A DNA stretch of 64,000 bases, taken from assembly GCA_963718665.1 (NCBI GenBank), contig OY970359.1, forward strand, positions 1,088,001 through 1,152,000, written 5' to 3'. This document shows, one piece after another, positions 14,144 through 63,262 of this stretch. The position numbers and the translations under genes are program-made. The first letter of the stretch is position 1; every line of letters begins with the position of its first letter. Under the pieces are notes generated by a model, which saw nothing but the letters and a program-made list of their open reading frames with translations, was not told where the DNA came from and ran no database searches. This stretch comes from an uncultured Phycisphaerales bacterium. GTDB taxonomy: Bacteria > Planctomycetota > Phycisphaerae > Sedimentisphaerales > Anaerobacaceae.

Positions 14144-15448
14144 CTACTTATCGATGGGCAGTTTGACGCCGCCCTGCGGTGTTCGCTCGACGTTGCTTTT
14201 CATTCCTTCCGGCTCACCTGCGGGAAGCGATTTTGTTCTGCAAATCAGTCCCCGTGCAAGCTGCGACGCATCGCCCGATACCACTGAGCAATAAGACAGA
14301 ACAGGCGCGACCTTGTCGATGCGAATAGTCGCGACGAGTATTTCCGTTGAGCCGATTATCTCATTGGTGTCGGCGTCGGCAATCTGCTTATCAGCTTTGA
14401 ATACGTCGAGTAATGTCCCCGTAACGAGCCGGTCACCTCCCTGGTCGATGATAATTTTGCCATCGGCTTCGATTGACGCGATACGAGGCGGGTATAGCTG
14501 GTTGCTCATTTTATTAACGACCTCGGCTGCTGCTTTGGCGACGAGATTATCAACAAGCTCTCTGTAATCGAGGTCTGGCGGCTCCCATTTTGTAACAAGC
14601 TGCTTGACCTCGTCGGTTTCGAGCCGCAGCCGGACTGAATCCGAGAACTTAACCTGCCTCGACGACGCAACAATAACGCTGTAATCGAAAGCGAAATCCG
14701 CGCGGTATTCCTTAAAGTTGACACCGGGGGCGGCTTCGTTGCTCGTGTGCCTGATCCACAGCTTCGCTTCGGTAATTGTCCCCACGAGCATATAATCGGC
14801 ACCGAGGGCCTGCCCGATTCTTGCCTGCTCTTCGATTGGCGCGGTAAGGAAAAGAACACCCTGTTCATTCAGATATTCCTGGATATGCTGCCTGTCCAGG
14901 ACGGCGAATTTATTTGTCTGCGTCAGCAGTGTGGTGATTCTCTGTGCGAGCTTGTCGGCAAGCTGCTCGCCGGGCACAGTTAATTCGATAAAGGAATAAA
15001 ACCGTTCTTCGGGCCTTAGCGGCATAACCGCAAATCGAGTCCTCGATGTTTTATCGGCAACACGGTTATATACCCATACCGTGAGCGTAACCTGGTATGT
15101 GCCGTCGTCAAGCTTCTTCTCGCCGATTATCTCGTATGTCTTCACTAATCCCGCGATATCGGTTGTCTGCAAAGTGCCGCTCGTCTGAACCGACACCGCG
15201 TCGAAGCCGACTGTTTTCCCGGTGTTCGTGCGGTTGATGTCTGCCGATGCCGAGCGGTAGCCGAATGAGTAATCGCCCGAACCGACTTTGATGCCTTTGA
15301 CCTGTGCGACCGCCTGGAAAAGTCCGTTCCTTATAGCGTCATCTTTCGACGGCCCTTGTCCCTGAACCTCCTTGACTATCGTGTCCTCAGCAAAGGCGAG
15401 TGAGCAGAAGACAACCGTTATTGCGATAAAAGCGCAAATCGTTTTCAT
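14144..15448 (-). CDS. CsgG/HfaB-family (FlgT-like) periplasmic protein
   Basis: Signal peptide; LTQTNKFAVLDRQ..LGADYMLVGTI core; last gene of the LpoB cluster. Confidence 0.75.
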   Translation of the reverse strand: MKTICAFIAITVVFCSLAFAEDTIVKEVQGQGPSKDDAIRNGLFQAVAQVKGIKVGSGDYSFGYRSASADINRTNTGKTVGFDAVSVQTSGTLQTTDIAGLVKTYEIIGEKKLDDGTYQVTLTVWVYNRVADKTSRTRFAVMPLRPEERFYSFIELTVPGEQLADKLAQRITTLLTQTNKFAVLDRQHIQEYLNEQGVLFLTAPIEEQARIGQALGADYMLVGTITEAKLWIRHTSNEAAPGVNFKEYRADFAFDYSVIVASSRQVKFSDSVRLRLETDEVKQLVTKWEPPDLDYRELVDNLVAKAAAEVVNKMSNQLYPPRIASIEADGKIIIDQGGDRLVTGTLLDVFKADKQIADADTNEIIGSTEILVATIRIDKVAPVLSYCSVVSGDASQLARGLICRTKSLPAGEPEGMKSNVERTPQGGVKLPIDK

Positions 15449-15568
15449 TTTTGAACTCCCTAAAAAAATCAACAACCTCACAATGACAGTTGAGCAGTTG
15501 ACCGCAGTTTCGCATTTTCACCTGCTCTACTGTTCAAATACTCAACTGCTCTGTCGGCCAAAAGCCGA

Positions 15569-16195
15569 CTACCACGGGACTTTTTTGCTGTCGCCGCGTT
15601 TCCCGAGAACGATTTCGTTTTGCCAGAAAACCAGACCATTGGTCAGATTGTTCATCTGGAGCTGGAAATAATACTCGACCTGCTGTTTATCGTTGTCATA
15701 GCGACCGTTTCTCTGGATGATTTTGCCGGAGATGCTTAGTTCCGGCGCGATAAGCTGGCCTTTTGCCTGCACAGTATCCTTGTTGAACTCATCGGCCTTG
15801 TCCGAGTCGCGAGTCAGTTCCCTGCTGCTATAGACCAGGCTGTCTTTTGGCGCGTTGCCTGCACCGACGGCTGCGGTCATAACAATCAGTCCGGACCTTG
15901 TCATCTCCTGCTCAACTTTGGCCATAAGCTGGTCGGTATCGATGTGCTGCATAGTGTCGTTGACGATTCGGCCTTTGGCGACGACGTATCTTCCGCCGCC
16001 TTCTTTTTTGAATGTGCCCGACTCGACCATTGACTGCACCATTTCACTTGCTGCCCTGTCGAAGTCGCGGTAATCGAGCTGCATAACCGCTTTGCCCTGG
16101 TCGTTGATTGTGTCAACGTTTTCGGTCTGGGGTGAGCAACCGACAAATGTTACGGATGAAGCGAGTACCGCAAAAGCCAATATTTTTTTAATCAT
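15569..16195 (-). CDS. lpoB: Penicillin-binding protein activator LpoB-family lipoprotein
   Basis: Lipobox FVGC; NDTMQHIDTD and YYFQLQMNNLTNGLVFWQNE motifs. Confidence 0.8.
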   Translation of the reverse strand: MIKKILAFAVLASSVTFVGCSPQTENVDTINDQGKAVMQLDYRDFDRAASEMVQSMVESGTFKKEGGGRYVVAKGRIVNDTMQHIDTDQLMAKVEQEMTRSGLIVMTAAVGAGNAPKDSLVYSSRELTRDSDKADEFNKDTVQAKGQLIAPELSISGKIIQRNGRYDNDKQQVEYYFQLQMNNLTNGLVFWQNEIVLGKRGDSKKVPW

Positions 16196-16209
16196 AGTCC
16201 TGTCTCCGG

Positions 16210-16644
16210 TTAATTAGGGATTTTTCGAGTGTTCATACGAAAATCAACAGCGGTTGTTCTCGGCGCAACGGCCTTAATAGCGAACGGCACTTTTGCCGCC
16301 GCGGAAGTTTGCAGCCACTTGCTGGTCGTGGTATCGATTACCATGCCGGTCTTGTCGAGCCACTCGACCTTGTATTCGAACACTATCGGGTTAAACGCCC
16401 GGTTGTGCCCCGCTATCTCGAGCTGCAGGAAGCCGTCTTTGTTGACGTAGGTAACGGCGCGGTCGATTTCAACGCCCTCGCCGATAATCCAGCTAAAGGC
16501 GTGAATCACCGGCTTGGTTACGATGTTGGTCACCACGTTGTCGCTTTTGACGTCTTCAGCCATCGTAACTCTTTTGTCTTCCTGCTGACAACCCCACAGG
16601 GTTACCGCGACGACAAGCAGCAACGTATTAAGCATCAATCTCAT
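16210..16644 (-). CDS. YcfL/DUF1425 family lipoprotein
   Basis: Lipobox LWGC; YKVEWLDKTGMVI and AVAPRTTAVDFR motifs. Confidence 0.8.
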   Translation of the reverse strand: MRLMLNTLLLVVAVTLWGCQQEDKRVTMAEDVKSDNVVTNIVTKPVIHAFSWIIGEGVEIDRAVTYVNKDGFLQLEIAGHNRAFNPIVFEYKVEWLDKTGMVIDTTTSKWLQTSAAAKVPFAIKAVAPRTTAVDFRMNTRKIPN

Positions 16645-16667
16645 ATTTCACCTCCGAAAAAGAATTC

Positions 16668-18053
16668 CTAAAATGCCAGGACCTCGCACACAGGCGAAGC
16701 GCCGGCGTTGATTATTTTAATATATACGATTGCGTTCCTGCAAGGGGGAATATGCACGTCAAACGCGGTATAGCCACCAGCAAAAACCTGGAGTAAGCGG
16801 TTTTCCGGTATGGCACATCGGGCAACCTGGAAATCCTTGGGCAAAGCAGACCATATTCGCACGTCCGCCGCGGTAGTCGCTAAGCTGTAAACCGCTATGG
16901 CCGCCGTCATAATCCCGTAGTTGTCGTTGTTCCTGGCCGCGGCCTGTGCCGCCGCCTTGACCGCAGCGGATGCGATTGCCCTTATCAGGATGCCCTTGAA
17001 ATCCTTTTTGAATTCGGTCTCGATTACGCGTTCCATATCCACGACCTGTCTGGTCTGGTATTCGCCAGCATCGGTCTTGATATTCAGATAAGGATACGCA
17101 ACTCTTCTCGGAGTCAGCTTGGGCAGTGCGATTCCCGCGTAATAAATCCTGGAGCTGACCAGCACAAGCGGCAAGTCAACTCGGAACTCTCCTTTGACCG
17201 GCCCCAGCCCGTTTTCAAATATCACCCAGCACTGGTTTTCCAGTTTCGCTTTTCCGGATGCCACATCATCCGCGAAAACGAGGTCGTTTTTGATGTAGTC
17301 ATTGTCGGGGACCATTCCCGCGGTCTCTTTCAGCAGGTCGGCCGCCCTGTCGTTTTCGCCGATGAGCAGGAAATAAATCCCCGCCAGATACGTTGTGAAG
17401 GGATTCACAAAATCAGGATACGGCTTGAACTCGCTCAGGTCCGGGTAATTGGCATTGATGATTGCTGTTGTCTTGGGGTCGTCTGCCATTGCCTTGGCGT
17501 CGGTATTGGTTTTTTCCTTCTGCTTGTCGAGCTTGGCTTCGAGCTTTCTGATTTCCTCGTTAAAATGTTCCTTTGCCCGCGTTTGCCTGTCCAGGGCGCG
17601 GTTGAATTCCACCCTTGCCATGTCAGGTTTTTTCTCCGCCAGAAATTCGAGCGCCTTGTAAGTATTGACCATTATGCCGTCGTATTCCTGGCCCTTATAG
17701 GGGATAGCGTTGTCGTTGACGAGAGTAGAGCCGACAGTATCGAGAACTTCCGAGTTCGGAGCGAAGTAATTCATCATTTCTTCGGCTTTGTCGAATTTCG
17801 CGACGCTGTCGGCGTGGTCAAGCTGGGCTTTTTCTGATGCGGCAAGCTGAAGCGTCCAGAGAAGGTCATCGCCCGATGGTTTTTTATCCTTCTTGATTTT
17901 GCTTTCAGCGAATTTCCCCGCCTGGTTGAAATCTCCGGCCTCGAACTGCCTGTTGAAGGTGCCGAGGTCACTCATCGCCGGGTTGCACCCAGTCAGACAC
18001 AAGCTGGACACTAACGCTAAAATTGCTATCGTAATTTTTATTCGCATTTTCAT
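16668..18053 (-). CDS. COG3014 family TPR-like lipoprotein
   Basis: Lipobox LTGC; YKGQEYDGIMVNTYKAL, ARVEFNRA, ENGLGP and ADVRIWSALP motifs. Confidence 0.82.
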   Translation of the reverse strand: MKMRIKITIAILALVSSLCLTGCNPAMSDLGTFNRQFEAGDFNQAGKFAESKIKKDKKPSGDDLLWTLQLAASEKAQLDHADSVAKFDKAEEMMNYFAPNSEVLDTVGSTLVNDNAIPYKGQEYDGIMVNTYKALEFLAEKKPDMARVEFNRALDRQTRAKEHFNEEIRKLEAKLDKQKEKTNTDAKAMADDPKTTAIINANYPDLSEFKPYPDFVNPFTTYLAGIYFLLIGENDRAADLLKETAGMVPDNDYIKNDLVFADDVASGKAKLENQCWVIFENGLGPVKGEFRVDLPLVLVSSRIYYAGIALPKLTPRRVAYPYLNIKTDAGEYQTRQVVDMERVIETEFKKDFKGILIRAIASAAVKAAAQAAARNNDNYGIMTAAIAVYSLATTAADVRIWSALPKDFQVARCAIPENRLLQVFAGGYTAFDVHIPPCRNAIVYIKIINAGASPVCEVLAF

Positions 18054-18264
18054 TGTTTATCCTCTACACCAAAAATTGTCAGAGATATAGGATAGCAGTC
18101 CACCGGCTATTGTCAAGAAAACTTCGGATTTTATCGATTTCGCAGATTATCGCCGCTGCCCGGCGGGAAAAGTAAAAAACTGGAAAATTTTCCATTTTTT
18201 TGTTGCAGGTTTTGTAATTGGGCGGTAGAAGAGAGTTGCAGCAGTTCTTTGGAAAAGAAATATG

Positions 18265-18572
18265 GTAATCACAGGTTCAGCATAACAGATTCACCGCCGA
18301 GAACGCGGAGACCGCAGAGAAAAAATAAATTCAAATGAATCTCTGCGTGCTCAGCGGCCTTTGCGGTAAAAAATTTTGCTGGATAATCAAATGGGAACTC
18401 GGTTGAAAGCCGAGACCGACCCGCGGCTGTAAGCGTCTGTTCCGATGATGAATCGGAAGTCCTAAAGGCAGATATCCACTGTTTCGCGCTAATCTTAAGC
18501 AAAAAGAGAGATTGGTGCGGGGTGGGAAGGAGCTTTTAGGTAAGACGCGAGTCAGAAAACCTGCCTGTGGTG
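18265..18572 (+). ncRNA. Cobalamin (B12) riboswitch aptamer, enlarged
   Basis: CACAGG..CCTGTG outer stem; AATGGGAA-CTCGGT-TGAA-AGCCGAG; CCCGCGGCTGTAA; CCACTG..GGGAAGG; B12 box GAGTCAGAAAACCTGCC. Confidence 0.9.
18293..18367. repeat. 9-bp-period palindromic MITE-like repeat inside the riboswitch
   Basis: ACCGCCGAGAACGCGGAGACCGCAGAG..CTCTGCGTGCTCAGCGGCCTTTGCGGT; a related half-element lies at 39538-39582. Confidence 0.7.
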
Positions 18573-18585
18573 AATTAAGTGGTTT

Positions 18586-18646
18586 ACCCCGTGAGATAAA
18601 GCGTAGCGGAAAATATTTATATCGCTGATTAGTTATCTCACGGGGT
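18586..18646. repeat. 14-bp perfect inverted repeat in the riboswitch expression platform
   Basis: ACCCCGTGAGATAA..TTATCTCACGGGGT. Confidence 0.75.
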
Positions 18647-18722
18647 TAATGGAGTTCTCGCGGAATGGAACTCGGCGCCGATGTGCTATAGCGCAGTTTT
18701 TGCGCTTTGTTTTTAGTTTATC

Positions 18723-18762
18723 AAGCCGTCGTTCCTTTCGCGGGACGACGGCTTTTTATTTT
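18723..18762 (+). terminator. Intrinsic terminator, probable riboswitch off state
   Basis: AAGCCGTCGTTCC-TTTCGC-GGGACGACGGCTT followed by TTTATTTT, about 120 nt upstream of the first CDS. Confidence 0.85.
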
Positions 18763-18883
18763 GCGCAGTTTTGGAGTTGACGCGTGAAAGGAGGTTCAAG
18801 GGCAATAGGTATTACCGGATTCATATGTGACGGAGAGGGGTAACAGTGATAAGAGAGTTTATTAGAGTTTTGGAGAAGAGAAA

Positions 18884-19447
18884 ATGGTTTCGAAGAAGGT
18901 GATGAGAGATTTAATGGTCGTTTTGCTAACAGGATTTTGCGGGACGGTTAGCTCAGTAGCAAATGCCGCGATTAATTACAATTTCGACGGCCTACCAGTA
19001 GCCATTGATTACTGGGCCGGCTCCGGAAGCAATGAGGCCGTTGTTGTCGTCGATTTTGGCGCAACCGGCGGCGACAGCTATGCTTTTGGTTTCGAGTGGA
19101 ACGGTATCGCAACCGGATATGATGCCCTTGTTGCAATTGCCGCGGCTGGCCCCCTAGAATTTGAGGCAACCGACTATGGTAGCATGGGCTACTATATTGA
19201 CAATTTCCAGTATAACGGCGAAAGCGGCAATCAAAGTTATTATTGGCAGTATTTCACCAGCAGCGACGGCAGCGTATGGGACTCATCTATGGTAGGCCCT
19301 TCCGACCGCATACTAACCAACGGCGATTTCGACGGCTGGTACAACAGCTTTAACCCCGGCGTGTCACCGACGACGCCGATTCCTGAGCCATTGACGATTG
19401 TTCTGTTGGGCGTTGGCGGTTTGTTTCTAAGGAAACGCAGAGCGTAA
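18884..19447 (+). CDS. PEP-CTERM surface protein with transcobalamin/DUF4430-like motif; putative B12 binder
   Basis: Signal peptide; YWQYF..WDSSMVGPSDRILTNGDFDGW; C-terminal IPEPLTIVLLGVGGLFLRKRRA. PEP-CTERM is secure, B12 binding is inferred. Confidence 0.75.
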   Translation: MVSKKVMRDLMVVLLTGFCGTVSSVANAAINYNFDGLPVAIDYWAGSGSNEAVVVVDFGATGGDSYAFGFEWNGIATGYDALVAIAAAGPLEFEATDYGSMGYYIDNFQYNGESGNQSYYWQYFTSSDGSVWDSSMVGPSDRILTNGDFDGWYNSFNPGVSPTTPIPEPLTIVLLGVGGLFLRKRRA

Positions 19448-19470
19448 GCAGTTCACTTCAGCTTAACAGG

Positions 19471-19501
19471 CGGGTGGGGCTTATAACCATAGCCCCACCC
19501 G
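19471..19501 (+). other. Intergenic GC-rich hairpin without U-tract
   Basis: CGGGTGGGGCT..AGCCCCACCCG. Confidence 0.7.
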
Positions 19502-19520
19502 AAATCTGGAAAGGAAAATA

Positions 19521-20507
19521 ATGTTCGGCGCAAAAGCATATATAGGTTTTCTTGCGGTTTGTCTTTTCATTGCAACAGCCGCAAAGGCCTCCTATGTTTA
19601 TGACCCAAATGACTTTGCAGCAGAAGTTATCGATTACGTTCAGGGCACTGGTGTACCCAAAGATTTCCTGACAGGTCAACCGTTTAACGACCCCAATATG
19701 GCCTTAGGCAGACCAACGCTGGAAACTACCGGCGATGGCTGGTTCATATCGCCCAATGAGCAGGTGCCTGTTGTTCCGGTTTATCCTCCTTTTCGTTCTT
19801 TCGAATTGGTTGCCATCGGCACTGGCGGACGATTGACCGTCAAATTCAATCTTCGCGTCGTACATGACAAAAATAATCCCTATGGGATAGATTTCATCAT
19901 TTACGGTAATGCTTTTCTGACAATCAGCGGAGGTCAAAACTGGACAAACGGTAATCCGGAGCTAACCACTGTCGGTGGCTCGTGCTCAGCCAAGCCGGGT
20001 ATAGTCGCTGTCAGCCAGGATGGCAATAACTGGTATTATTTCTCGAACGGCCCATACGCGGATAGTTTTGCTCCTACCGCAAGCTATGAGTGGGACGACG
20101 TCAATAACGTATGGGGTGACGAGCTTGACCCCACTCGACCGATAGACCCCAATCTGACGGCCGCTTCCCTGAACGGTCTGACAGTCGCCGAGGTAATCAA
20201 TGCCTACAATGGCTCAGCTGGCGGAACCGGTTTTGACATAGGCACGCTCGGACTGGGCTGGATTCAATATGTCCGGATAGAAAATGGCCCAACCAGCGGC
20301 GTAATACCAGATATAGACGCCATCGCCGGTGTAAGCTGTTGCGGTGATTATAAACATCCCTACCCCGTGGGTGACTTGAATCAGGATTGCAGGGTCAATT
20401 TCGTTGACTTCGCGATACTGGCACAGCAATGGCATGCGGGAACTGGTTGGGATGATTTGTCAGATTTGGCTGACAACTGGCTAAAGTGTAGTTGTGAATA
20501 CCCATAA
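19521..20507 (+). CDS. Secreted BtuH-like (cell-surface B12-binding-like) protein with dockerin-like C-terminus
   Basis: AIGTGGRLTVKF..GIDFIIYGNAF..KPGIVAVSQDG..W..GGTGFDI..IQYVRI; tail GDLNQDCRVNFVDFAILAQQW..DDLSDLADNWL. Confidence 0.6.
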   Translation: MFGAKAYIGFLAVCLFIATAAKASYVYDPNDFAAEVIDYVQGTGVPKDFLTGQPFNDPNMALGRPTLETTGDGWFISPNEQVPVVPVYPPFRSFELVAIGTGGRLTVKFNLRVVHDKNNPYGIDFIIYGNAFLTISGGQNWTNGNPELTTVGGSCSAKPGIVAVSQDGNNWYYFSNGPYADSFAPTASYEWDDVNNVWGDELDPTRPIDPNLTAASLNGLTVAEVINAYNGSAGGTGFDIGTLGLGWIQYVRIENGPTSGVIPDIDAIAGVSCCGDYKHPYPVGDLNQDCRVNFVDFAILAQQWHAGTGWDDLSDLADNWLKCSCEYP

Positions 20508-20540
20508 ATCCGTGAGATTAATCCGCCGAAAGTTGATAAA

Positions 20541-21287
20541 ATGCGAAGCAGGGCTTTTACACTGGTAGAGTTGCTGGTTGTAATCTCCGTGGTAGCTGTC
20601 TTAATGGCATTTCTGATGCCGGCGCTGGCCAGAGCCAGGCAGCAGAGTAAAACCATAGTATGCCTGAGCAACCTCCGGCAAATGGCAATAGCTTCACAGG
20701 TGTATATAAGTAACAACGATGGCTCCTATCCCATCGCCTACACATCTCAATACGTATCTCCCCTGTCTGTCTCTTATGCCTGGGATTTTACAACGACGAC
20801 AAACTGGAACACGGGTGAGCAAAAAGTAATTCCGGGCTTATTATGGGAAGGCGAGACAATCGAGAAAATACAACAGTGCCCGTCTTTTAACGGCAGTGCT
20901 AACTGGCTTGAGGACCCTTACACAGGTTACAACTACAACACCAGCTACATAGGACACGGTCAGCTCGAAAGCATTCCTGCCCCTGCAAGGGTAGAAATGA
21001 TTAGAAGACCGAGTCGATGCGCCCTCTTCGGTGATGGCCAGTGGGCCGCTGGGGCAGATAAGTTTATGCGGGCGCCCTGGCCAAATCCAGGCGATGCGTC
21101 CTTTTCCGGCAGATACGCCGGAACACAAGGTTATCGGCATCAAGGCAAAACCAACGTTGCCTATTGTGACAACCACGCGGCGACCGTCAGCGAATGCTAT
21201 ACAAACACCGATAAAGCTGATGCAGCCAACATCGCCCCGGGCACGGGTTTTTTGTCGCCGGATAACAGCGCATACGACCCGGAGTAA
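20541..21287 (+). CDS. Prepilin-type N-methylation domain protein (DUF1559-like pseudopilin)
   Basis: RAFTLVELLVVISVVAVLMAFLMPALARAR..CLSNLRQ; C-terminal RHQGKTNVAYCDNH (H-X9-DG-like). Confidence 0.9.
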   Translation: MRSRAFTLVELLVVISVVAVLMAFLMPALARARQQSKTIVCLSNLRQMAIASQVYISNNDGSYPIAYTSQYVSPLSVSYAWDFTTTTNWNTGEQKVIPGLLWEGETIEKIQQCPSFNGSANWLEDPYTGYNYNTSYIGHGQLESIPAPARVEMIRRPSRCALFGDGQWAAGADKFMRAPWPNPGDASFSGRYAGTQGYRHQGKTNVAYCDNHAATVSECYTNTDKADAANIAPGTGFLSPDNSAYDPE

Positions 21288-21353
21288 AAAAGCCACAAAA
21301 ACACCAAGGCACAAATCTTTATATTTTCACGTCTTTATGGTAATCTGCCGCGA

Positions 21354-22070
21354 ATGCGGCTGCAATTTATCGTATGCAAGGTGATGCAAAAAGAGGCGTA
21401 TTATTGCGCTGCCCGCTCGCCAAACACAGTTGACGTGGTGGTGATGAAACAGGGGCTGCACAATGAGCCGGAAAAATTGCGCCGGGAGGTTCAAAAGGCG
21501 CTCGATACGACAACTGATACCCAGAACAGACCCTACGATGCTTCGCTTCTGGGATATGGGCTTTGCAGTAACGGGATAATCGGCTTGTCGGCCAAAATTC
21601 CGATTATTGTGCCGAGAGGACATGACTGCGTAACACTCCTTTTGGGCTCGAAAGACGTATATAAGGAGTATTTTGACAGCCACCGCGGGGTTTACTGGTT
21701 CAGTCCGGGATGGATTGAGACGGATATGCAGCCCGGCAAGGAACGCTTCGAGAGGACGCTCAAGGAATATATTGAAAAATTCGGTGAGGACAACGCCAAG
21801 TATCTTATGGAAACCGAGCAGAGCTGGATGAAGGAATACAACTGGGCGACGTATATCGACTGGGGATTTGCCAACAATGAGCGAGAAAAGCAGTTCACTA
21901 AAAAGGCGGCGGAATATCTCAACTGGAAGTATGATGAAGTCAAGGGTGATTCGGGCCTGATGCAGCGGCTTGTGGACGGCCGATGGAATGAGAAGGATTT
22001 TCTGGTTGTTAAGCCGGGACAGAAAATAACAGAGGATTTAACGAACGACGGCCTGATAAAAGCTGAGTAA
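21354..22070 (+). CDS. DUF1638 domain protein
   Basis: CKVMQKE, GLHNEPEKLR, LGYGLCSNG, HDCVTLLLGS and YWFSPGW motifs. Confidence 0.85.
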   Translation: MRLQFIVCKVMQKEAYYCAARSPNTVDVVVMKQGLHNEPEKLRREVQKALDTTTDTQNRPYDASLLGYGLCSNGIIGLSAKIPIIVPRGHDCVTLLLGSKDVYKEYFDSHRGVYWFSPGWIETDMQPGKERFERTLKEYIEKFGEDNAKYLMETEQSWMKEYNWATYIDWGFANNEREKQFTKKAAEYLNWKYDEVKGDSGLMQRLVDGRWNEKDFLVVKPGQKITEDLTNDGLIKAE

Positions 22071-22078
22071 GGTGTTGA

Positions 22079-23059
22079 ATGATAAGTGAAATTGTATCAG
22101 CGATTGATTTTGGGAGGCATAAACTTACGCCATGGGGAGTTATATCCGTTCTGATTTTTGTCGGCGTCACATTCGCAGTTTACGCGGCTGAGGCATACCT
22201 GATAATTGGCATTGTAAAAAGCAAGCGAAGGGGACAAGTAATTCCGAAGCGATTCCGATCCGCGGGCGCGATAATTATTCATTTGCTGGCGATAGTGGGA
22301 ACGGCCTGTTTATTATACGGCCATCTTATCGAGCCATACTGGGTAGAGGTTAAAAAAGTCGAAATCCCTACGAGCAAATTGCATCAAACCACGGTGCGGA
22401 TAGTGCAAATATCGGATACGCATTGCACCATAAGACCGCTCAATGAGAAAAAAATGGTGGAAATAATTAATCGTCTAAAGCCGGACATTATCGTATTTAC
22501 AGGCGATTCAGCAAACAACTCAAGGGGATTAAAGCGGTTTAAAGAAACAATGGGGAAGCTGGAGGCCCGGCTCGGAAAATTTGCTGTGCGCGGAAATATC
22601 GATGATTACTTCTGGCTAAGGACGGACATCTTCAGCGGGACAGGTTTCGTTGACCTTGACGAAAACAGCATCGAAATTGATAAAAATGGGGAGAAGGTTT
22701 GGATTACAGGAGTTTCCTGCGAAAAGGAAGGCAAGGCAGGTGATGTGCTGAAGAAAGTGCCTGACGATTGCTTCAGTGTTTTTCTTTATCACTACCCTGA
22801 TTTGGTGGAAGATTTGAACGGTATGCACGTTGATTTATATCTTGCGGGACATACTCACGGCGGGCAGATTGCCCTGCCGTTTTACGGCGCGATTATTACG
22901 CTCTCTAAATTCGGTAAAAAATACGAATCCGGCGAGTACAAGGTCGGCAACACTATTCTTTATGTAAATCGCGGTCTTGGACTGGCCGCCGGCTTTAACC
23001 CGAAGATGAGATTTTTTGCGAGACCTGAAATAACAGTTTTTGATTTGAAGCCGAAATAG
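22079..23059 (+). CDS. Membrane-anchored metallophosphoesterase (YkuE-like)
   Basis: SDTH, FTGD, RGNID, AGHTHGGQ and VNRGLG motifs. Confidence 0.88.
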   Translation: MISEIVSAIDFGRHKLTPWGVISVLIFVGVTFAVYAAEAYLIIGIVKSKRRGQVIPKRFRSAGAIIIHLLAIVGTACLLYGHLIEPYWVEVKKVEIPTSKLHQTTVRIVQISDTHCTIRPLNEKKMVEIINRLKPDIIVFTGDSANNSRGLKRFKETMGKLEARLGKFAVRGNIDDYFWLRTDIFSGTGFVDLDENSIEIDKNGEKVWITGVSCEKEGKAGDVLKKVPDDCFSVFLYHYPDLVEDLNGMHVDLYLAGHTHGGQIALPFYGAIITLSKFGKKYESGEYKVGNTILYVNRGLGLAAGFNPKMRFFARPEITVFDLKPK

Positions 23060-23061
23060 GT

Positions 23062-25014
23062 ATGCCAGACAGTGATATACAGGTAAAACAAACGGAAATA
23101 TCCAGGACGGTGTTAATATGCGTTGTCCTGGCGGCGGCGACGTTTGCAGCTTTTGAAGGGGTAAGGTCGAACTATTTTGTTTTTTATGACGACGACAAAT
23201 ATATTACCGGCAACGATGCGGTGTTAAGGGGGTTTAGTATTGAGTCGCTCAGATGGGCGTTTACGACCGGGTATCAGGGGAACTGGCATCCGCTGACGTG
23301 GGTAAGTCATCTTATTGATGTTTCCGTTTTTGGTCTTAACCCGGCAGGACACCATTTGGTCAGTGTCGGTTTTCACATCGCAAACGTAATCCTGCTTTTT
23401 TTGATATTGAAAAAAATGACGTCCGCGGTCTGGCTAAGTGCATTTGTCGCGGCAGTGTTCGGTTTGCATCCTATTGGCGTGGAATCCGTCGCCTGGGCCG
23501 CCGAGCGTAAAAATGTTTTGAGCAGCTTTTTTGCGTTTTTGACGATATGGGCATATTTGCGGTACGCGCGAAAGCCGGGGTTGTGGCGATACTCGGCGAT
23601 GACAATTCTTTTCACGGCGGGATTGCTTTCCAAGTCAATGCTGGTAACGCTGCCTTTTGTTTTGATTTTGCTGGACTATTGGCCGATTGCCAGGTTCGGG
23701 GAGCTGAAGGGGCGGCGGTGGCTTTGGCGGGCGATTATCGATAAAACCCCGCTTATAGCGATTTCGGCGGCGTTTTGCGCTGTAACGTATCTGGTGCAGG
23801 CCAAAGCGGGAGCAGTGCCGGATATGGTTTCGTTGCCAATAAGCTTACGGGCCAGCAACGCGCTGGTGTCGTATATCAGATATATCGGCAAGATTTTTTA
23901 CCCGACCCCGCTGGCGGCTTTGTATCCGCTTGATGCTAACGGATATCCGTCGTGGAAGGTGATTTTGTGCCTTGTGCTGCTGCTGGCATTGACGACGGCA
24001 GTAATTATTGAGAGATACAGGCACAGATTCTTGCTGACGGGGTGGTTTTGGTATTTGGGGACATTGGTGCCCGTTATCGGTCTGGTCCAGGTGGGCGTGC
24101 AGGCGATGGCGGACCGATATATGTACCTGCCCGGCATAGGTATTTATATCGTAGTCGCCTGGCTTGCCAGCGAAATATCGGCGAAATCGCGTCTGCCAAA
24201 AATTGTTCCGGCTGTAACGGGCACGGCAGTCCTGCTCGCGTTGCTGCTGATGACCAGAGCGCAGGTCAGATACTGGAAGAACAGCGAATCGCTGTTTAAG
24301 CACACCCTGGATGTAACGACAAATAATTACGTGATGCACAATAATTACGGCGAGGTTTTCAAAGAATCAGGGCGTTTGGATGAAGCTATAGAAAATTTCA
24401 GGCAGGCGCTGGCGGTGTATCCGATGGGGATAGAAGCGCATGAAAAGCTTGCACAAGCGTTGCAGGACAAGGGGCAGGACGCCGAAGCGGCCGCTGAGTT
24501 CGAGCTGGCGCTGCGGGCAAAGCCGGACGGAACCGAGACACGAAATCGCTATGGGGTCTCGCTTGTAAAAATTAAGCAGTATAACAAAGCGTTTGAACAA
24601 TTCGACAAGGTGCTGACGGAGAATCCGCACGAGTTGAGCGCATTGAATAATCTTTATAAAGCCGGCGTCGAGAGCGGACAGATTGATAAGGCGCTGGGTA
24701 TGATTCTGAATTTACAGGCGAAAGACCCGAATAATTTCGAGTTCTACCAGAAAGGCGGGTTGCTTTACGGCATAAAGGGCGACATAAATACCGCGACAGA
24801 GCAGCTCGAAAAGGCGTGCAGATTGTCCAATTATCAGGTTTCGGAGCCGATGGCGTTTCTTTCGCAGGCGTACGCCGCCAAAAAGGATATGAAAAGCGCC
24901 ATCGATATGGCACAAAAGGCGCTTTCGGCGGCCCAGAAAGAAGGCAGAGACGATGTTGTTACACAGCTAAGGGCCAGTTTGGAATCGTATCAGCGGGCAA
25001 TGAAAGGAAATTGA
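23062..25014 (+). CDS. TMTC-like multi-TM glycosyltransferase with TPR repeats
   Basis: YDDDKYI, NWHPLTW, HPIGVESVAWAAERK and ADRYMYLP motifs; C-terminal TPR repeats. Confidence 0.85.
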   Translation: MPDSDIQVKQTEISRTVLICVVLAAATFAAFEGVRSNYFVFYDDDKYITGNDAVLRGFSIESLRWAFTTGYQGNWHPLTWVSHLIDVSVFGLNPAGHHLVSVGFHIANVILLFLILKKMTSAVWLSAFVAAVFGLHPIGVESVAWAAERKNVLSSFFAFLTIWAYLRYARKPGLWRYSAMTILFTAGLLSKSMLVTLPFVLILLDYWPIARFGELKGRRWLWRAIIDKTPLIAISAAFCAVTYLVQAKAGAVPDMVSLPISLRASNALVSYIRYIGKIFYPTPLAALYPLDANGYPSWKVILCLVLLLALTTAVIIERYRHRFLLTGWFWYLGTLVPVIGLVQVGVQAMADRYMYLPGIGIYIVVAWLASEISAKSRLPKIVPAVTGTAVLLALLLMTRAQVRYWKNSESLFKHTLDVTTNNYVMHNNYGEVFKESGRLDEAIENFRQALAVYPMGIEAHEKLAQALQDKGQDAEAAAEFELALRAKPDGTETRNRYGVSLVKIKQYNKAFEQFDKVLTENPHELSALNNLYKAGVESGQIDKALGMILNLQAKDPNNFEFYQKGGLLYGIKGDINTATEQLEKACRLSNYQVSEPMAFLSQAYAAKKDMKSAIDMAQKALSAAQKEGRDDVVTQLRASLESYQRAMKGN

Positions 25015-25018
25015 GGAA

Positions 25019-25576
25019 GTGGAATTGCTTTCGGTTATTACGATAGCAGTTGGTCTGGCGATGGATACCTTCGCGGTGTCAATCGTTACCGGTGCCGCGT
25101 ATAAACAGTTGCACATCCGTCATACGCTGCGAATGGCGGGATTCTTCGGCGGGTTTCAGGCGCTTATGCCCGTTGTCGGTTATCTGGCGGGGCTGACGGT
25201 GAGACAATACGTGTCGAATTATGACCACTGGATTGCCTTCGGAATACTTGCCGCAGTTGGGCTCAAGATGATTTACGAGTCGTTCAAAATCAAAGAGGAA
25301 AGACAAACCCCGAATCCGGCGAATCTTCTGGTGGTGCTTGCCCTTGCGGTGGCGACGAGCATCGACGCCCTGGCGGTCGGCATTACGATTTCACTTATTA
25401 CACATGCGATTGCGCTGACGGTTATCATTATCGGTGCGGTAACTTTCGGCTTGTCGTTTGCCGGCGTCTATATCGGCAAAAAATTCGGGCATTTCTTCGA
25501 GGGCGGTATCGAAATAATCGGCGGCCTTGTCCTCATCGCCCTCGGCCTTAAAATCGTCCTCCAGCACGTCGCTTAA
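25019..25576 (+). CDS. mntP: Manganese efflux pump MntP
   Basis: GLAMDTFAVS, FQALMP, DHWIAF and ATSIDALAVG motifs. Confidence 0.9.
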   Translation: MELLSVITIAVGLAMDTFAVSIVTGAAYKQLHIRHTLRMAGFFGGFQALMPVVGYLAGLTVRQYVSNYDHWIAFGILAAVGLKMIYESFKIKEERQTPNPANLLVVLALAVATSIDALAVGITISLITHAIALTVIIIGAVTFGLSFAGVYIGKKFGHFFEGGIEIIGGLVLIALGLKIVLQHVA

Positions 25577-29833: not shown

Positions 29834-30792
29834 TTTATCTTAACCACGGGAACAACCGACATTCCGGGTGAAAGCTTTTTCAGGTCATTGGCATTTTCAT
29901 CGAAAACAATTTTTACGGGCACCCTCTGAACAACCTTGATATAATTGCCGGTGGCGTTTTCCGGCGGCAGCAAACTGAATACTGCACCTGTTCCTGCCTG
30001 GATACTGTCAACGTGTCCTTTGAAAGTTTTTCCGGAATAAGCATCGACCTTAATAGTTACCTGCTGGCCCGGCTTCATATGCTTCAATTGTGTTTCCTTG
30101 AAGTTGGCGACCACCCAGATTTCCGGCGGGACAATCGCCAGCAACGGCTGCCCCGTGGTTATATGTTCGCCCTGCTCGACGGATTTTTGGGTAACCAAGC
30201 CCGCCTGAGGAGCAATTATCTTCGTGTATGAAAGATTCAATTCGGCCTGCTCGACCGCGGCTTTCGCTTCGGCGACTCTTGCCTGGGCGGCGACAATCTG
30301 GCTGTTGGCAGATTCGAGTTGTGCCTGTGCAGAACGCGCAGCTGCCGAGGCGTTGTCCAATTGCTGCTGAGTGATTCCGGCTTTGGCGTCAAATAACTGC
30401 TGGTATCTATTGTAATCCTTTTCAGTTCTGCTCGCCTCCACCGATGCCATACTCGCCTGGGCCTGGCTTTGTTTTACTGCCGCTTGTGCCGTCGAGAGAT
30501 TTGCGCTGGCCATATCAAGGTTGACCTGGAAATCATGCGGGTCAAGCTCGACAAGGACGTCCCCCTGCCCAACGGACTGGTTGTCGTTCACAAGTACTTT
30601 ATCAACGTAGCCGGAGACACGCGCGCTTATCGAAACGATGTGCCCGGTTATGAACGCGTCATCGGTTGATTCACGCGACATCGCCCGGACGATATAAATT
30701 CCCGCACATATCAATACAGCTATGCCCGCTATTATCCCGATTGAAGTTATTCGTTCCCAGCCGCCTCTGATTGCTCTTTTGATAATACTCAT
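29830..30792 (-). CDS. HlyD/EmrA membrane fusion protein
   Basis: STDDAF, WVVANFKETQL and FSLLPPENATGNYIKVVQRVPV motifs. Confidence 0.93.
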   Translation of the reverse strand: MSIIKRAIRGGWERITSIGIIAGIAVLICAGIYIVRAMSRESTDDAFITGHIVSISARVSGYVDKVLVNDNQSVGQGDVLVELDPHDFQVNLDMASANLSTAQAAVKQSQAQASMASVEASRTEKDYNRYQQLFDAKAGITQQQLDNASAAARSAQAQLESANSQIVAAQARVAEAKAAVEQAELNLSYTKIIAPQAGLVTQKSVEQGEHITTGQPLLAIVPPEIWVVANFKETQLKHMKPGQQVTIKVDAYSGKTFKGHVDSIQAGTGAVFSLLPPENATGNYIKVVQRVPVKIVFDENANDLKKLSPGMSVVPVVKIK

Positions 30793-32259
30793 TTTTCCTT
30801 TCGCTCCATTTGAACGTTATTTGTGTCCGACGCCGGTTGCGTCATCTTTGAGGGTTCTAAACGCGCAAGTGTGCCCATTGCCCTGTTCAGGTCGAGTTTG
30901 GCGACCAGGTGAGAATAAATCGCCTGGTAATAGTTCGCCTTGGCTGTTGTGAGAGCCGTCTGGGCGTCAACTACCTCAACCTGTGTATTTGTGCCTTCTC
31001 TGTAACCCGCCTCAACCAGCCGCAGCCCTTCTTCCGCGCGGGAAAGATTGAGCTTCTGCGAATCGACGAATTCGGCGGCGTCCTCGATGCTGAGGGTTGC
31101 CTTTGTCAGTTCAAACAACGCCGTTTCCTCGGTATCGACCAGGTCAATCTGCGATTGTTTGAGCCGGGCCTTTTGCGAAATGACGCCGCCCTCGCGCGAA
31201 ACCGTCAAAAAGCGGCAAAGACGCCATAAGCCCGTAATCCCACCCGTTATCCCATTCGTTCAACATCGGGTTATGGGTATTCGGTTTTGTCCAGTAATCC
31301 TTGTAATACGCGCTTACTATCGGGTAATAAGTGCTTTGCGCAATTGTAAGCAGCTCTTTCTGCTGTCTTATATCAAGCTCCCTGCTGAACAGGTCGGGCC
31401 TGTTTCGATACGCGGCCGCGACTGCCTGTTCCATCGTGATGCTAAAAGGAGAGTAAACAAGCTCGTTGCCGAGAACAAATACGCTGTCCTGCGAAACGCC
31501 CATTATTTTGACAAGGTTTGCTTTGGATATATTGATGGCGTTTCGCCGCTGAATAAACTGCGCTGTGAAATTCGACAGCTCAACTTCTGCACGCAAAACG
31601 TCATAACTGGAAGCGACACCAACGGCGTGTTTTTGGTTTACGTCATCCAGGTGCACCTTTGCGGATTTCACTGCATCCTCGCTTATTGCGTAAAGCTGCT
31701 GGTCCAAAAGAACGGTATAATAACCGAGTTGTGCCGCGTAAACCGTTTCCTGGACGGCAATCCTCACGGCCTGGTCGGCCATAAGCACCCCAAGACGCCC
31801 CGCGTTGATTCTGGCGGGAATCGCCCCGCCCGCGAATATCGGCTGAGTAACCGTTAACGCCGCCGAATAATTATCCAGCGTACCAACTGTTATGTTTTGG
31901 CCGCCGAAGGTAAAATATGGTTTCTCGTCAACACGCTCATAACCGCCCGAAATTGCCACCGTCGGCAGTATCGCAGAATACGAACCAAGCTCTCCACCCC
32001 GCGCGGCTTCCCTTTCCTCTAACGTTTTCAAAAGCATTTTGTTGTTTGTCAGCGTCAGCTTCAGGCAGTCGTCGAGAGAAAGTTTTCCCGAAATTATCGG
32101 CTGCGTCTGTTTCTCGACCTCTTTGCGGCCTTCCCACTGTTTATATGCCGATTCCCGTGACAGCGTCGCCTCGTTAGTGAACTCTTCTTTGCTGACGCAG
32201 CCGGTAAGTGAAATCGCGGACAGTAAAAGGCACAGGATTATATTGGTTGCCAGTTTCAT
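30789..32259 (-). CDS. TolC family outer-membrane protein, frameshifted near 31195
   Basis: ORFs 31144-32259 and 30789-31208 join (LPLFDGF..EGGVISQK); lipobox LTGC. Confidence 0.85.
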
Positions 32260-33395: not shown

Positions 33396-34352
33396 TAACT
33401 ATTGGCTCCCGATAAGTTAGACGTTTACCCTCTGACCCTTGAATCGCTTTTGCGATACGCTCCCCGTCGTTTAATTGTCGGGTATTCCAACGAAACGCGA
33501 ACTCGGAAACGTATCTATGTAAGTGCTTTTTGCTTACTGAATGGAATGTTCCATATAAACCGCGTTTGAGGGCGCAAAGAAACTTTCCACTGTATTGGTA
33601 TAAATATCGCCCCGAACATATTCGCGTCGGCTATGACATACTGTTTTATGCCCGCTCCAAAATACTCTTGTGGCGCTCTTGTAAGCGGGTTCTTCATCAG
33701 TAATTATTCTTGACGCCAAATCGACTTGTTTCCATAATTCATTTTTCAATGCTTCGGCAGTTACATTCGGAATAACGCGCGTCCGAACACCACCATTGCG
33801 TTCAACTAAGGCCAGTACGGGCGTTTTTGGCGTGCCTCGCCCCCGTAAACCCTTCCTGTGGAATCGCGGTTTGCCGCCGACATAAGTTTCGTCCGCCTCA
33901 ATAGTCCCCTGTAATTTCTTTTCTTGTTTTGGCGCAGTCATTGCGTAACGAATACGATGCAAAATAAATAAAGCTGTTTTGTAAGTTACATTGCACTCCC
34001 GCTTAATCTGTAAGGCACTTACGCCGTTCTTCGATGCACAAGCCGCCCAGAAAGCGTGACACCATATTTTAAGTGGCACTCGTGAATCCTCAAAAACTGT
34101 GCCGACGCGAACGGTATATTGTTTTTTGCAACCGTCCTCGTGACAACGCCATAGGAATCTCTTGTTACGTCCACCATCCTTGCCTGTCATTTTAGATACA
34201 TTGATACTGCCACAATGAGGACAGGCAGGATACTCACCCCAGCGTTGCTTTTCCATAAAATACACTGCCGCCGCTTCGTTGGAGCAAGCTATTGGCAACT
34301 CCTTAACGATTACGTCTTTTGTCCGAACAGGTTTTTTATTTTTTATCTTCAT
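33388..34352 (-). CDS. IS1595 (ISXO2-like) DDE transposase, frameshift near 33572
   Basis: CPHCGS Zn ribbon, EADETYVGG, ITDE and TNTVESFF; continues in another frame as LKRGLYGTFHSVSKKHLHRYVSEFAFRWN. Confidence 0.9.
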
Positions 34353-39579: not shown

Positions 39580-41525
39580 CTAATTTTTGCTTGTTTTCAA
39601 ATCGTATGCCCTGTAAAGCAATTCGAGATATTGCTCTTTTTCTTTGACCTGGCCATGTACCCTGGCGAGCATTTTGTAATCTCTATATACTTTTTCCTCG
39701 CCGAAACTTTCATGCAGCTTTTTTATAGCTGCCTCCGTTTCCTCAATTGCCTGCTCAATCTTTTCCGCCGGCCAGATATTAAATTGTTTCAGCTCCGGCG
39801 GGGTTGTCTTCCTCGGCTTATCCCGCTTTTGCCTTTTAGGTTTTGCGGCCTGCGGGACTGTTTCCCGTTCTAATGCCCTTTGCTCTAAGAGTTCGGCATA
39901 CCGGCTAAATGAGCCGTTTATAAACTCAAATCTGCCCGCCGCCGTTTTGCCCAGCTCATCTGCGCCGAGCACAATAAGCCGCTGGGCTATCCTGTCGAGA
40001 AAAAACCTGTCGTGACTTACGACGATTATTGTCCCCGTGTAGTCCCCAAGTGCGTTTTCGAGCGCCTCGATACTTGGAATATCAAGGTGATTTGTCGGCT
40101 CATCGAGTATAAGAACCTCCGGCTCGGACAAAACCAGCTTGCAAAGCGCAAGCCGGTTTCGCTCTCCACCGCTAAGGTCCGCCACCTTCTTAAACACGTC
40201 GTCTTTGACAAACAGAAATGCCCCGAGGCACTGCGCACCTGTTCGGGCAGCATTTCAGGAATGACCAAAGCTGCCTCTTCAAGCACGGTATTTTCCGAAT
40301 TCAGTTCCGCCCCTGCCTGGTCAAGATAACCAACGGAAAGGGTCTTCTTAAGCTCGATTGCTCCGGAGGTCGGCTCGATTTGCCCAAGGGCAAGTTTCAG
40401 CAGCGTTGTTTTGCCCATTCCGTTTGGGCCGATGATACCTGTCCGCTGGCCGGTTAAAAGCTCGAAACTCATGTTTTCAAACAGCATTAGATTGCCAAAG
40501 CTCTTCGTAAGATTTTCGCATGTTACCACCGCATCCACTCGCTTACCCTTGTTTTCCACCTCGGCAAATTTAAAGCTAAGCTCTCTCGTGCGTTTCGGTT
40601 TTTCGAGAAAGTCAGGATTGTTTTTGAGAAGATTATCGAGCCGCGTTTGCCTGCCCTGCGCAACCTTTTTCGTTCCCTTGCGGTTTATATTGCGCACAAT
40701 AAAGTCGCGGGTTTTTTCGACGAACTCCAGCCGCTGTTCGTACTGACGCCCCAGTTCAATATCTCGCTTTTCTTTTTCCTGCCTGTAACTGCTGTAATTG
40801 CCCGTGAAAACGTCTGCCCTGCGGTTCCTGATTTCCACAATTTTACAAACCAATCTGTCTAAAAGAAACCTGTCGTGGCTGACAATCAGCGCAGCGCCGC
40901 CGTAGTTTTTTAAGAATTTTTCAAGCCACAGGGTCGCGTCCCAGTCGAGATGGTTTGTCGGCTCATCTAAGAGCAGCAGGTTCGCGTCCGCCAGCAGGAC
41001 TTTTGCGAGCCCCAGCCGCGACAATTGCCCCCCGCTTAACTGCGTCGTTTTTAGCGAATAATGTTTTTCCTCAAGACCCAGCCCCGCGGCGATTTCTTTT
41101 ATTTTCGTTTCATACCTGTAGCCGCCTATAATTTCAAATTCGCTGCTCAGCCGGTCGTATTGCTGCATCGCGGATTTTAATTCGCCGCCGGAAAGTCCGC
41201 TTAATGTCTCCGCCGAGTCGTGCATCCTTTTTTGCAGGTCGAGTATTTCCTGAGCGCTGCTGTGCAGTTCTTCAAGAACAGTTTTTTCACCGCCAAAAAC
41301 CGGCTCCTGCGGCAGGTATCCGATTCGCAGGGCCTTTCTTTGATGAACCTCGCCGGCATCAGGCGGCAGTATTCCGAGAATCATTTTCAACAGCGTGGTT
41401 TTTCCGCACCCGTTGCTCCCGACAAGCCCAACCTTCTCGGCGGGGTATATTTTCAAATCGAGCCGGTCAAAAATCACTTGCGGCCCGAATGATATATGTA
41501 TCTCTTTTAATGTTACTATCGGCAT
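39580..41525 (-). CDS. ABC-F family ATPase (Uup-like), frameshifted near 40230
   Basis: Two ABC domains (GSNGCGKTT, LSGGQ, DEPTNHLD; GPNGMGKTT, LSGGE, DEPTNHLD) split over two frames. Confidence 0.88.
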
Positions 41526-59940: not shown

Positions 59941-59943
59941 GGG

Positions 59944-63123: not shown

Positions 63124-63262
63124 TTTCCCCGTTATCAATAATAATTGAACGTGCCGTCCTTCAAACACTATACATTGTCAGTCAAATCGTGTTTTGTGTC
63201 AAGATTTTTGCCTTTCTCCTTGTCGGACAAAACCCGCGTAAATCCGTGTTACCTGTCCTGCC

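Follow-up and report, generated by a model that had tools for sequence, protein, structure and literature searches.

A B12 riboswitch cassette of predicted cobamide-binding surface proteins and a pilin-like protein: a candidate TonB-independent uptake system in Planctomycetota and related bacteria

Introduction

How can vitamin B12, at 1.3 kDa, pass the outer membrane of bacteria without TonB-dependent transporters? This unexplained problem is raised, and may be addressed, by a locus in a 64,000-nucleotide stretch of DNA from an uncultured Phycisphaerales bacterium (C1:1088001-1152000 of contig OY970359.1, here called the window). The window is part of a single 2.61 Mb contig, and the genome is 94.6% complete. 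In the locus, a cobalamin riboswitch precedes genes for a PEP-CTERM protein (P1), a protein with a dockerin-like tail (P2), a pilin-like protein or pseudopilin (P3) and a DUF1638 protein (P4). An initial annotation had proposed that the surface proteins capture cobamides and that the pseudopilin moves them through a secretin or pilus machine. Here we analyse this locus and its relatives by sequence, structure-prediction and genome comparison. We read the first three genes as a cassette for B12-repressed capture of cobamide at the cell surface, in which the pilin-like protein couples the binders to a pilus or secretin and the cobamide reaches a BtuFCD-type importer with no TonB-dependent transporter involved; the probability of this reading as a whole is put at about 0.5. 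Its parts differ in strength: surface capture of cobamide by the predicted binders is very probable, while the pilin-coupled import step is tentative, falling somewhat short of even odds.

Results

The riboswitch and the gene string

The riboswitch aptamer lies at positions 18330-18582 of the plus strand and covers the full RF00174 model (positions 1-189) with 60.9 bits (E 1.3e-12; gathering score 31.5). No second RF00174 match occurs in the 2.61 Mb genome. About 140 nucleotides (nt) 3' of the aptamer, an intrinsic terminator occupies 18723-18764 of the same strand as expression platform, with a 13-bp hairpin (18723-18754, eight G-C pairs, -23.5 kcal/mol) followed by the T-run TTTTTATTTT. This hairpin is the sole strong plus-strand terminator-like site in 18000-25200, there being none else across 18760-25200. 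Related loci, described below, have a terminator-like hairpin and T-run 3' of the aptamer in 66 of 71 cases, against 15 of 67 control coding stretches. A scan for sigma-70 promoters returned 12 sites where 9.7 were expected, and was uninformative.

Four plus-strand genes follow, each an open reading frame (ORF): P1 (18884-19447, 187 residues), P2 (19521-20507, 328 residues), P3 (20541-21287, 248 residues, with an N_methyl domain) and P4 (21354-22070, 238 residues). Among the 47 further ORFs of the window, a Pfam scan found no btuB, btuCDF or energy-coupling factor (ECF) transporter gene. Since riboswitch, terminator, the four co-oriented ORFs and the Pfam scan all agree with it, the description of the locus in the initial annotation is correct, with a qualification on the family of P3 given below.

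Conservation of the cassette

In a sample of 401 genomes of the phylum, P2 relatives occur in 25, including the genome studied here, and 20 loci were fetched; left out of the cassette genomes were the P2 matches of G093, G284 and G014 (tail only or weak) and of G238 (short, E 1.7e-5). A same-strand RF00174 match lies 5' of P2 in 18 of the 20 loci, and both exceptions are cut contigs. A pattern scan with one genome per species yielded 534 P2 relatives, and 80 loci were kept. Most are from Phycisphaerae, Sedimentisphaerales and Anaerohalosphaeraceae records, with some from Kiritimatiellae, Verrucomicrobiota and Lentisphaeraceae and one from a metagenome-assembled genome labelled Bacillota. RF00174 is found upstream in 71 of these 80 species-genome loci (19, 19, 18 and 15 per batch of 20). 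Of the nine loci without it, L070, L093, L121 and L125 have less than 250 nt of upstream sequence and L134 and L136 have 738 nt; L105, L108 and L133 show no RF00174 match despite at least 1764 nt. Most of the nine are truncated at a contig end.

The order riboswitch, P1, P2, P3 is found in 35 of the 80 loci, and in five more with P4 downstream. A P1-P2 fusion takes the place of the separate genes in 15 loci, and eight have riboswitch, P2 and P3; rarer orders are few; two Kiritimatiellae records, for example, have P1 behind P3. An orthologue of P3 (at least 150 residues aligned, 44-93% identity) stands beside P2 in 74 of the 80 loci, and the remaining six are cut off by a contig end inside P2 or just past it (in L129, P3 itself is cut). 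The set of riboswitch, binder genes and pseudopilin gene, whose conservation the initial annotation had made a condition of its reading, is found behind B12 riboswitches in Planctomycetota, Kiritimatiellae, Verrucomicrobiota and Lentisphaerae records. Judged by gene order, the conserved unit is the trio P1-P2-P3, not the four genes.

The pilin gene also appears tied to the switch in other arrangements. L056 has two riboswitches, one directly 5' of P3 and the other 5' of P2. In a sister family (L049, L051, L053, L054 and L055), the riboswitch is followed by P2, by a PQQ_2/BamB-like beta-propeller protein of about 475 residues in place of P1, and by a different DUF1559 pilin. The arrangement of L056 and the sister family together mean that the tie between B12 switch and pilin recurs with two pilin subfamilies. 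As far as can be read from the genomes, the pseudopilin does not seem to be independent of the B12 switch, in keeping with the operon first proposed.

Two close relatives, L127 and L128, share 82-89% DNA identity with the leader of the window (18172-18913) and 89-92% with P4 and the gene after it (P5). Between these flanks the cassette coding region (18913-21250) is hypervariable, and its DNA aligns in short patches only. At the protein level, identity is 32-36% for P1, 41% for P2 and 49-51% for P3, against 97% for P4. Such joint divergence of the three cassette genes between conserved flanks would fit exposed, interacting proteins, or recombinational replacement.

Genes downstream of the cassette were scanned with 57 ORFs 3' of P3. 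The genes that follow P3 on its own strand encode a Peripla_BP_2 protein and an ATP-binding cassette (ABC) ATPase in L062 and L079 (with a gap of 3 nt in L079), CobU and CobT in L061, CobA/CobO in L111 and a His_Phos_1 protein in L073. The gene after P3 is most often ComF-like, being a DZR_2 protein with or without a Pribosyltran domain. Such a gene is directly 3' of P3 in 19 loci (L064, L066, L070-L072, L074, L075, L084, L089, L098, L101, L113, L123, L131, L135, L041, L043, L045 and L046), with a double zinc ribbon and, in 14 of the 19, the phosphoribosyltransferase domain. ComF proteins are part of pilus-linked DNA uptake; the position of the gene may be plain synteny among related genomes.

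P1 and P2 resemble B12-binding domains in predicted structure

P1 scores 18.1 on the PEP-CTERM model TIGR02595, above its cut-off of 16, and also 18.1 on the Pfam PEP-CTERM model, under the cut-off of 20.7. Its C-terminus has the PEP motif, a transmembrane stretch and a basic end, reading IPEPLTIVLLGVGGLFLRKRRA. A regular expression finds the PEP motif in 46 of 50 separate P1 relatives, and the remaining four have TPEP or APEP. In the predicted model of P1, which has a predicted local distance difference test (pLDDT) value of 82, residues 47-157 align structurally with the beta-domains of transcobalamin, intrinsic factor and haptocorrin, with Z-scores of 12.0-12.9 and a root mean square deviation (rmsd) of 2.0-2.2 Å over about 100 residues. 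The superposition covers the whole beta-domain, at 12-15% sequence identity. The top 14 matches of the fold search (VIA) are all transcobalamin, intrinsic factor or haptocorrin, the 15th is 3u7z (Z 11.2), and the tier below consists of beta-grasp proteins with Z of 6.5 or less. The P1 domain is detectable in 64 of the 80 loci, in 15 of which it is fused to P2.

The model of P2 has a pLDDT of 87.3 overall and above 94 in the core. Core residues 25-272 match the B12-binding domains of BtuG1 (8blw_B residues 388-660; Z 12.8, 152 residues, 28% identity) and BtuH2 (7biz_A residues 315-592; Z 12.5, 153 residues, 26% identity) in the fold search (VIA), and Foldseek gives E-values of 4.1e-8 and 7.8e-6 against the BtuG1/BtuH domains. 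The tier below is made up of CBM32-like jellyrolls with Z of 9.3 or less and 6-14% identity. An Atlas lead to DUF4465 (score 0.89) was rejected, as the fold search led to BtuH instead and not to the BtuJ jellyroll. Two reports describe the BtuH domain as a direct B12 binder of about 270 residues, common to BtuH1, BtuH2 and BtuG1 and without known structural homologues, and place BtuH homologues in gut Bacteroidetes and three Firmicutes (PMC8941943, PMC13616437), a BLASTX E-value of 0.03 or less being the homology criterion of the BtuH paper. Conserved residues that contact the corrin or form two metal sites are named in PMC13616437. As for the BtuH family, P2 is encoded in a riboswitch-controlled locus. 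The initial annotation had called the surface proteins B12-binder-like, and the predicted models of both P1 and P2, by matching solved B12-binding domains, support that description.

No Pfam family matches P2, its tail reaching Dockerin_1 at E 0.074 only, and the one NCBIfam match, to a LIC_13355 lipoprotein, is weak (1.7e-5, far under the cut-off). The protein database holds 577 relatives of P2, named 'hypothetical protein' or 'dockerin type I domain-containing protein'. Six ORFs of the genome have a dockerin-like tail. A general pairing of dockerin-tail proteins with pilins was considered and dropped, since only two of these six adjoin a pilin-like ORF. The second pair, on the minus strand at C1:255555-258424, consists of a 600-residue protein with a dockerin-like tail and, 114 nt on, a 317-residue pilin-like protein; the latter is one of only two long-range matches of P3 in the genome (28% over 268 aligned columns).

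P3 is a pilin-like protein specific to the cassette

P3 matches N_methyl (PF07963) at 5e-6, as do all 33 orthologues. The prepilin motif RAFTLVELLVV, with Glu10 at position +5 and followed by a hydrophobic helix, is invariant in the 33 orthologues, and in a profile search of the PDB it is the N-terminal helix alone that resembles solved pilins and GspG. The orthologues further share two invariant cysteines and a conserved globular domain of 190 residues with the motifs YTGYNYN, GANKFMR and GTQGYRH. An H-X9-D motif is also present: His200 and Asp210 are invariant, and Gly211 is nearly so but is Asn in P3 of the window. TIGR04294, which we take to be the H-X9-DG model, is not among the NCBIfam matches of P3.

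The evidence for assigning the pseudopilin to DUF1559 (PF07596, SBP_bac_10) is mixed. The copy in the window does not match PF07596 even at E of 10 or less, but 18 of the 33 orthologues do (best 3e-13), and the Atlas model of P3 aligns with PF07596-bearing clusters at template modelling (TM) scores of 0.72-0.92. The genome has 19 other pilin-like matches to P3, which extend over only the N-terminal 60-90 residues or have 28-30% identity over longer stretches, whereas orthologues elsewhere have 40-93% identity over the full length. Full-length matches of at least 40% identity number one per genome in the phylum sample, and all stand beside P2 except in G143, where the P3 and P2 genes are on separate short contigs. 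On these comparisons, P3 appears to be one specific orthologue tied to the cassette.

Prediction of a P2-P3 complex gave a score of 0.32 (0.01, 0.32 and 0.49 in three runs) against 0.00 for the best control; the runs share at least 34% of contacts, and the pLDDT of the partner is at least 83. Of 157 solved complexes 116 attain the mark for this score, as do two of 215 mismatched pairs; with scores of 0.60 or below, just 18 of these solved complexes attain it, together with both of the mismatched pairs. The prediction thus lends weak support to a contact between P2 and P3.

Uptake and use of B12 in this genome and its relatives

Profile searches of the genome found no BtuB equivalog, no TonB_C, no CobS and no CbiC. 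It encodes a single Plug-domain protein, which is not BtuB: NCBIfam places it closest to the TOL_0244 family, its neighbour is YfiR-like, and the BtuB model TIGR01779 gives it a score of 48.7 where the cut-off is 599.7. The absence of btuB noted for the window therefore extends to what can be recognised in the genome. The absence of btuCDF does not, since it holds for the window while a BtuFCD-like operon is found elsewhere, at C1:1336228-1338994. The best matches of its permease and ATPase are BtuC (257.8 bits) and a corrinoid ABC ATPase (248 bits); for its binding protein, BtuF comes second (106.7 bits) to a model of PGF-CTERM-anchored substrate-binding proteins (121.4 bits). All these scores are under the equivalog cut-offs. 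B12-binding domains have six matches in the genome, four above the curated cut-off, including a 214-residue corrinoid protein of the MtgC/MtbC type, and a gene for a RamA-like activator is also present. Because B12-dependent proteins are present and CobS and CbiC were not found, the organism appears to need imported cobamide, for which it has an inner-membrane importer and no recognisable outer-membrane one. The RamA-like (RACo_C_ter) match, outside the window at C1:175301-176074, has one in-frame TGA inside a 557-residue open frame; possible causes are a split gene, an error of sequencing and codon recoding.

Five near-complete cassette genomes have one RF00174 match each, always that of the cassette. 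All five encode a full-length FecCD permease, and a Plug domain is wholly absent from four of them. Plug domains occur in 300 of the 401 genomes of the phylum sample against nine of the 20 cassette genomes, the other 11 lacking them; as the related genomes are not independent, this comparison is a tendency and not a test. CbiC is present in one of the 20 cassette genomes and in 37 of the 401 of the phylum sample. With CbiC that rare across the phylum sample, auxotrophy was dropped as a discriminator.

P4 and other genes of the window

P4 matches DUF1638 (PF07796) with 140.9 bits (cut-off 27, E 4.2e-41), and this gene is single-copy in the genome. Where P4 follows the cassette, its identity is 93-97% and that of P2 is 41-86%.

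Immediately 5' of the riboswitch, a divergent minus-strand cluster of genes resembling those of envelope lipoproteins (14144-18053) encodes CsgG-like, LpoB-like and DUF1425 proteins and a 461-residue protein without family. Further along the minus strand, an OEP outer-membrane efflux protein (30789-32259) and an ABC-F ATPase (39580-41525) are each present as two overlapping ORFs, which could be frameshifts or assembly errors. An IS1595-family transposase is encoded at 33534-34352, also on the minus strand, and an HNH-AP2 protein stands beside a 1074-residue MmeI/Eco57I-like methylase-type restriction-modification enzyme at 58089-63168 of the same strand.

Discussion

A possible route for cobamide

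When intracellular cobamide is low, the terminator would not form and P1, P2 and P3 would be made. P1, anchored by its PEP-CTERM sequence, and P2, with its dockerin-like tail, would be exported and bind cobamide at the surface, where they may clamp it between them, perhaps like the two domains of transcobalamin; the 15 P1-P2 fusions suggest that the two act together. A prepilin peptidase would cleave P3, and one of the type II secretion or type IV pilus machines of the genome would assemble it into a short fibre. P3 would then contact P2 and carry the cobamide, or hand it over, across the outer membrane and periplasm, and the BtuFCD-like ABC importer would complete uptake. A wider proposal can be built on this, namely that a pilus-type fibre is the outer-membrane B12 route in bacteria of the Planctomycetes-Verrucomicrobia-Chlamydiae (PVC) group. 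In this proposal, a dedicated DUF1559 pilin would dock the binders and draw cobamide in via a secretin, standing in for BtuB and TonB. We regard this as doubtful. If it were true, the huge expansion of DUF1559/H-X9-DG proteins would represent uptake pilins that are each specific to a substrate, B12 being the first ligand assigned to one.

Several observations weigh against the uptake reading. Models, not solved structures, underlie the fold matches of P1 and P2. When 51 P2 relatives were made into a profile and searched against all PDB chain sequences at E of 1 or less, no BtuH or BtuG chain was found, so the link between P2 and BtuH is at fold level only. P1, searched against Pfam at E of 10 or less, matches nothing beyond PEP-CTERM and in particular not DUF4430, presumably PF14478; in a published account, shorter transcobalamin-like proteins built from the beta-domain are filed under that family (PMC4350170). 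The P2-P3 complex score is weak, with one of three runs at 0.01. A tree of P3 orthologues and paralogues does not group the orthologues as a single clade; its deep forks are open, two changes are required, and one origin is still allowed. The five secretin genes of the genome are all outside the window, and none is tied to P3. With nine of 20 cassette genomes encoding Plug proteins, the cassette is not confined to genomes without such transporters. The absences from the genome are not proof either, because it is 94.6% complete.

Other readings give P3 a different place. P3 might be a cobamide carrier tethered to the inner membrane by its pilin helix, serving in the periplasm and feeding BtuFCD, with the outer membrane crossed by another channel after capture by P1 and P2. 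It would then resemble the Sulfolobus bindosome, in which sugar-binding proteins carry pilin signals. The filing of DUF1559 in Pfam as SBP_bac_10, the globular domain of P3 with its invariant aromatic and polar motifs and two cysteines, the btuF/btuD-like genes after P3 in L079 and L062, and a BtuFCD-type importer in this genome and in all five relatives speak for such a carrier. Against it, a BtuF-like binding protein is already present, and passage of the outer membrane is left unexplained in genomes without TonB-dependent transporters. P3 moreover diverges along with the surface proteins between conserved flanks, as would fit exposure or contact, and the predicted contact with P2, weak as it is, points the same way; we consider the periplasmic carrier unlikely. 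That contact would equally suit a cargo-specific pseudopilin for export, similar to those of type II secretion, which secretes or anchors P1 and P2, for instance via the dockerin-like tail, and has no role in import. P2 always adjoins P3, the N-terminus of P3 matches the helices of GspG and pilins, a second dockerin-tail and pilin-like pair exists in the genome, and five secretin genes could serve it. Yet four of the six dockerin-like-tail ORFs do without an adjoining pilin-like ORF, P2 relatives with PEP-CTERM or verrucomicrobial-type C-termini still keep a P3 orthologue, and P1 is sorted by PEP-CTERM, a separate route. This role would also leave import through the outer membrane unexplained; we judge it improbable that P3 acts in export alone.

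Two further alternatives concern the cassette as a whole. It might bind cobamide at the surface to keep it from competitors, to store it or to sense it, or its B12-regulated task at the surface might have nothing to do with binding. For Bacteroides, two reports discuss a reservoir role of BtuH-type and BtuJ-type proteins (10.1101/2025.07.01.662609, PMC13616437), and hypervariable coding between conserved flanks is expected of exposed surface proteins. In all six genomes examined, however, the cassette is under the sole B12 switch. This genome has B12-dependent proteins with neither CobS nor CbiC found, only one of 20 cassette genomes has CbiC, and four loci carry btuF/btuD, cobU/cobT or cobO in the same gene string, all of which makes a function apart from import very unlikely. 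The initial annotation had also counted DUF1638 in the operon, so that P4 might be a working part of the uptake system. P4 is co-oriented with P3 and separated from it by 66 nt in which no terminator-like site is seen. Just five of the 80 loci, though, all from close relatives, have P4 behind the cassette, and by eye, without a prediction tool, the translated N-terminus of P4 has no evident signal peptide. DUF1638 proteins are needed for B12-dependent methionine synthesis in Phaeobacter inhibens, a cytoplasmic role, according to one study (PMC5764234), and co-occur with RamA-like activators in that study and a second one (PMC5764234, PMC12478193); the RamA-like gene and corrinoid protein of this genome are located elsewhere. 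Membership of DUF1638 in the conserved module is therefore not upheld, and a working part in uptake is hardly credible: P4 is read as a cytoplasmic corrinoid-handling neighbour that may be co-transcribed with the cassette in this genus only.

Comparison with known systems

P1 has in common with transcobalamin, intrinsic factor and haptocorrin the beta-domain fold, to which residues 47-157 of its model superpose at about 2.1 Å rmsd. A crystal structure of the isolated human beta-domain with cyanocobalamin, entry 5np4, is among the matches of P1 in both VIA and Foldseek. In contrast to transcobalamin, P1 has no alpha-domain partner, and it is a bacterial PEP-CTERM protein and a putative cobamide binder.

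With the DUF1559/H-X9-DG proteins, P3 shares the prepilin cleavage and methylation motif, the H-X9-D motif and its structural neighbours in the Atlas. It differs from the family at large in that each genome has one orthologue, encoded with predicted B12 binders behind a ligand-specific switch. DUF1559 has no known function; the model planctomycete Planctopirus limnophila encodes 68 paralogues, of which two are essential (PMC10632474). Our literature search, by title or abstract and with subscription journals outside it, returned no functional study of DUF1559; nor did it return a description that joins DUF1559 proteins or pseudopilins with B12 riboswitches, most subscription journals and bioRxiv supplements being outside the search. 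The cassette now ties one DUF1559 orthologue to a ligand-specific RNA switch and two predicted B12 binders in several PVC lineages.

Pilin-like subunits serve the import of large solutes without TonB in type IV pilus DNA uptake and in the Sulfolobus bindosome. We know of no vitamin substrate for such systems. The likeness to them is an analogy, and the cassette differs in having no linked assembly genes.

In the Btu relay of Bacteroides thetaiotaomicron, BtuJ, BtuH, BtuK and BtuG act with BtuB, followed by BtuFCD, as set out in two papers (PMC8941943, PMC13616437). Relay and cassette alike are under B12 riboswitch control and place several secreted, surface-held B12 binders (predicted ones in the cassette) ahead of an inner-membrane BtuFCD. 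P2 is predicted to have the BtuH B12-binding fold, binder domains are fused in both (BtuGH in the relay, P1-P2 in the cassette), and the beta-propeller after P2 in the sister family recalls the propeller of BtuG. The models would thus extend the BtuH fold, described as mainly Bacteroidetes in its report (PMC8941943), and likewise the transcobalamin beta-domain fold, to environmental PVC bacteria. In contrast to the relay, no BtuB is present in the cassette at any locus examined and no equivalog in this genome, and four of the five near-complete cassette relatives have no TonB-dependent transporter at all. The anchors are PEP-CTERM and a dockerin-like tail where the relay has lipoprotein signals, a sequence profile does not reveal P2 as a homologue of BtuH, and the strictly conserved, dedicated pilin-like protein has no counterpart in the relay. 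Of known systems the Bacteroides Btu relay comes nearest; what sets the cassette apart is that BtuB and TonB are absent, that its anchors are different and that a pilin-like component is obligate.

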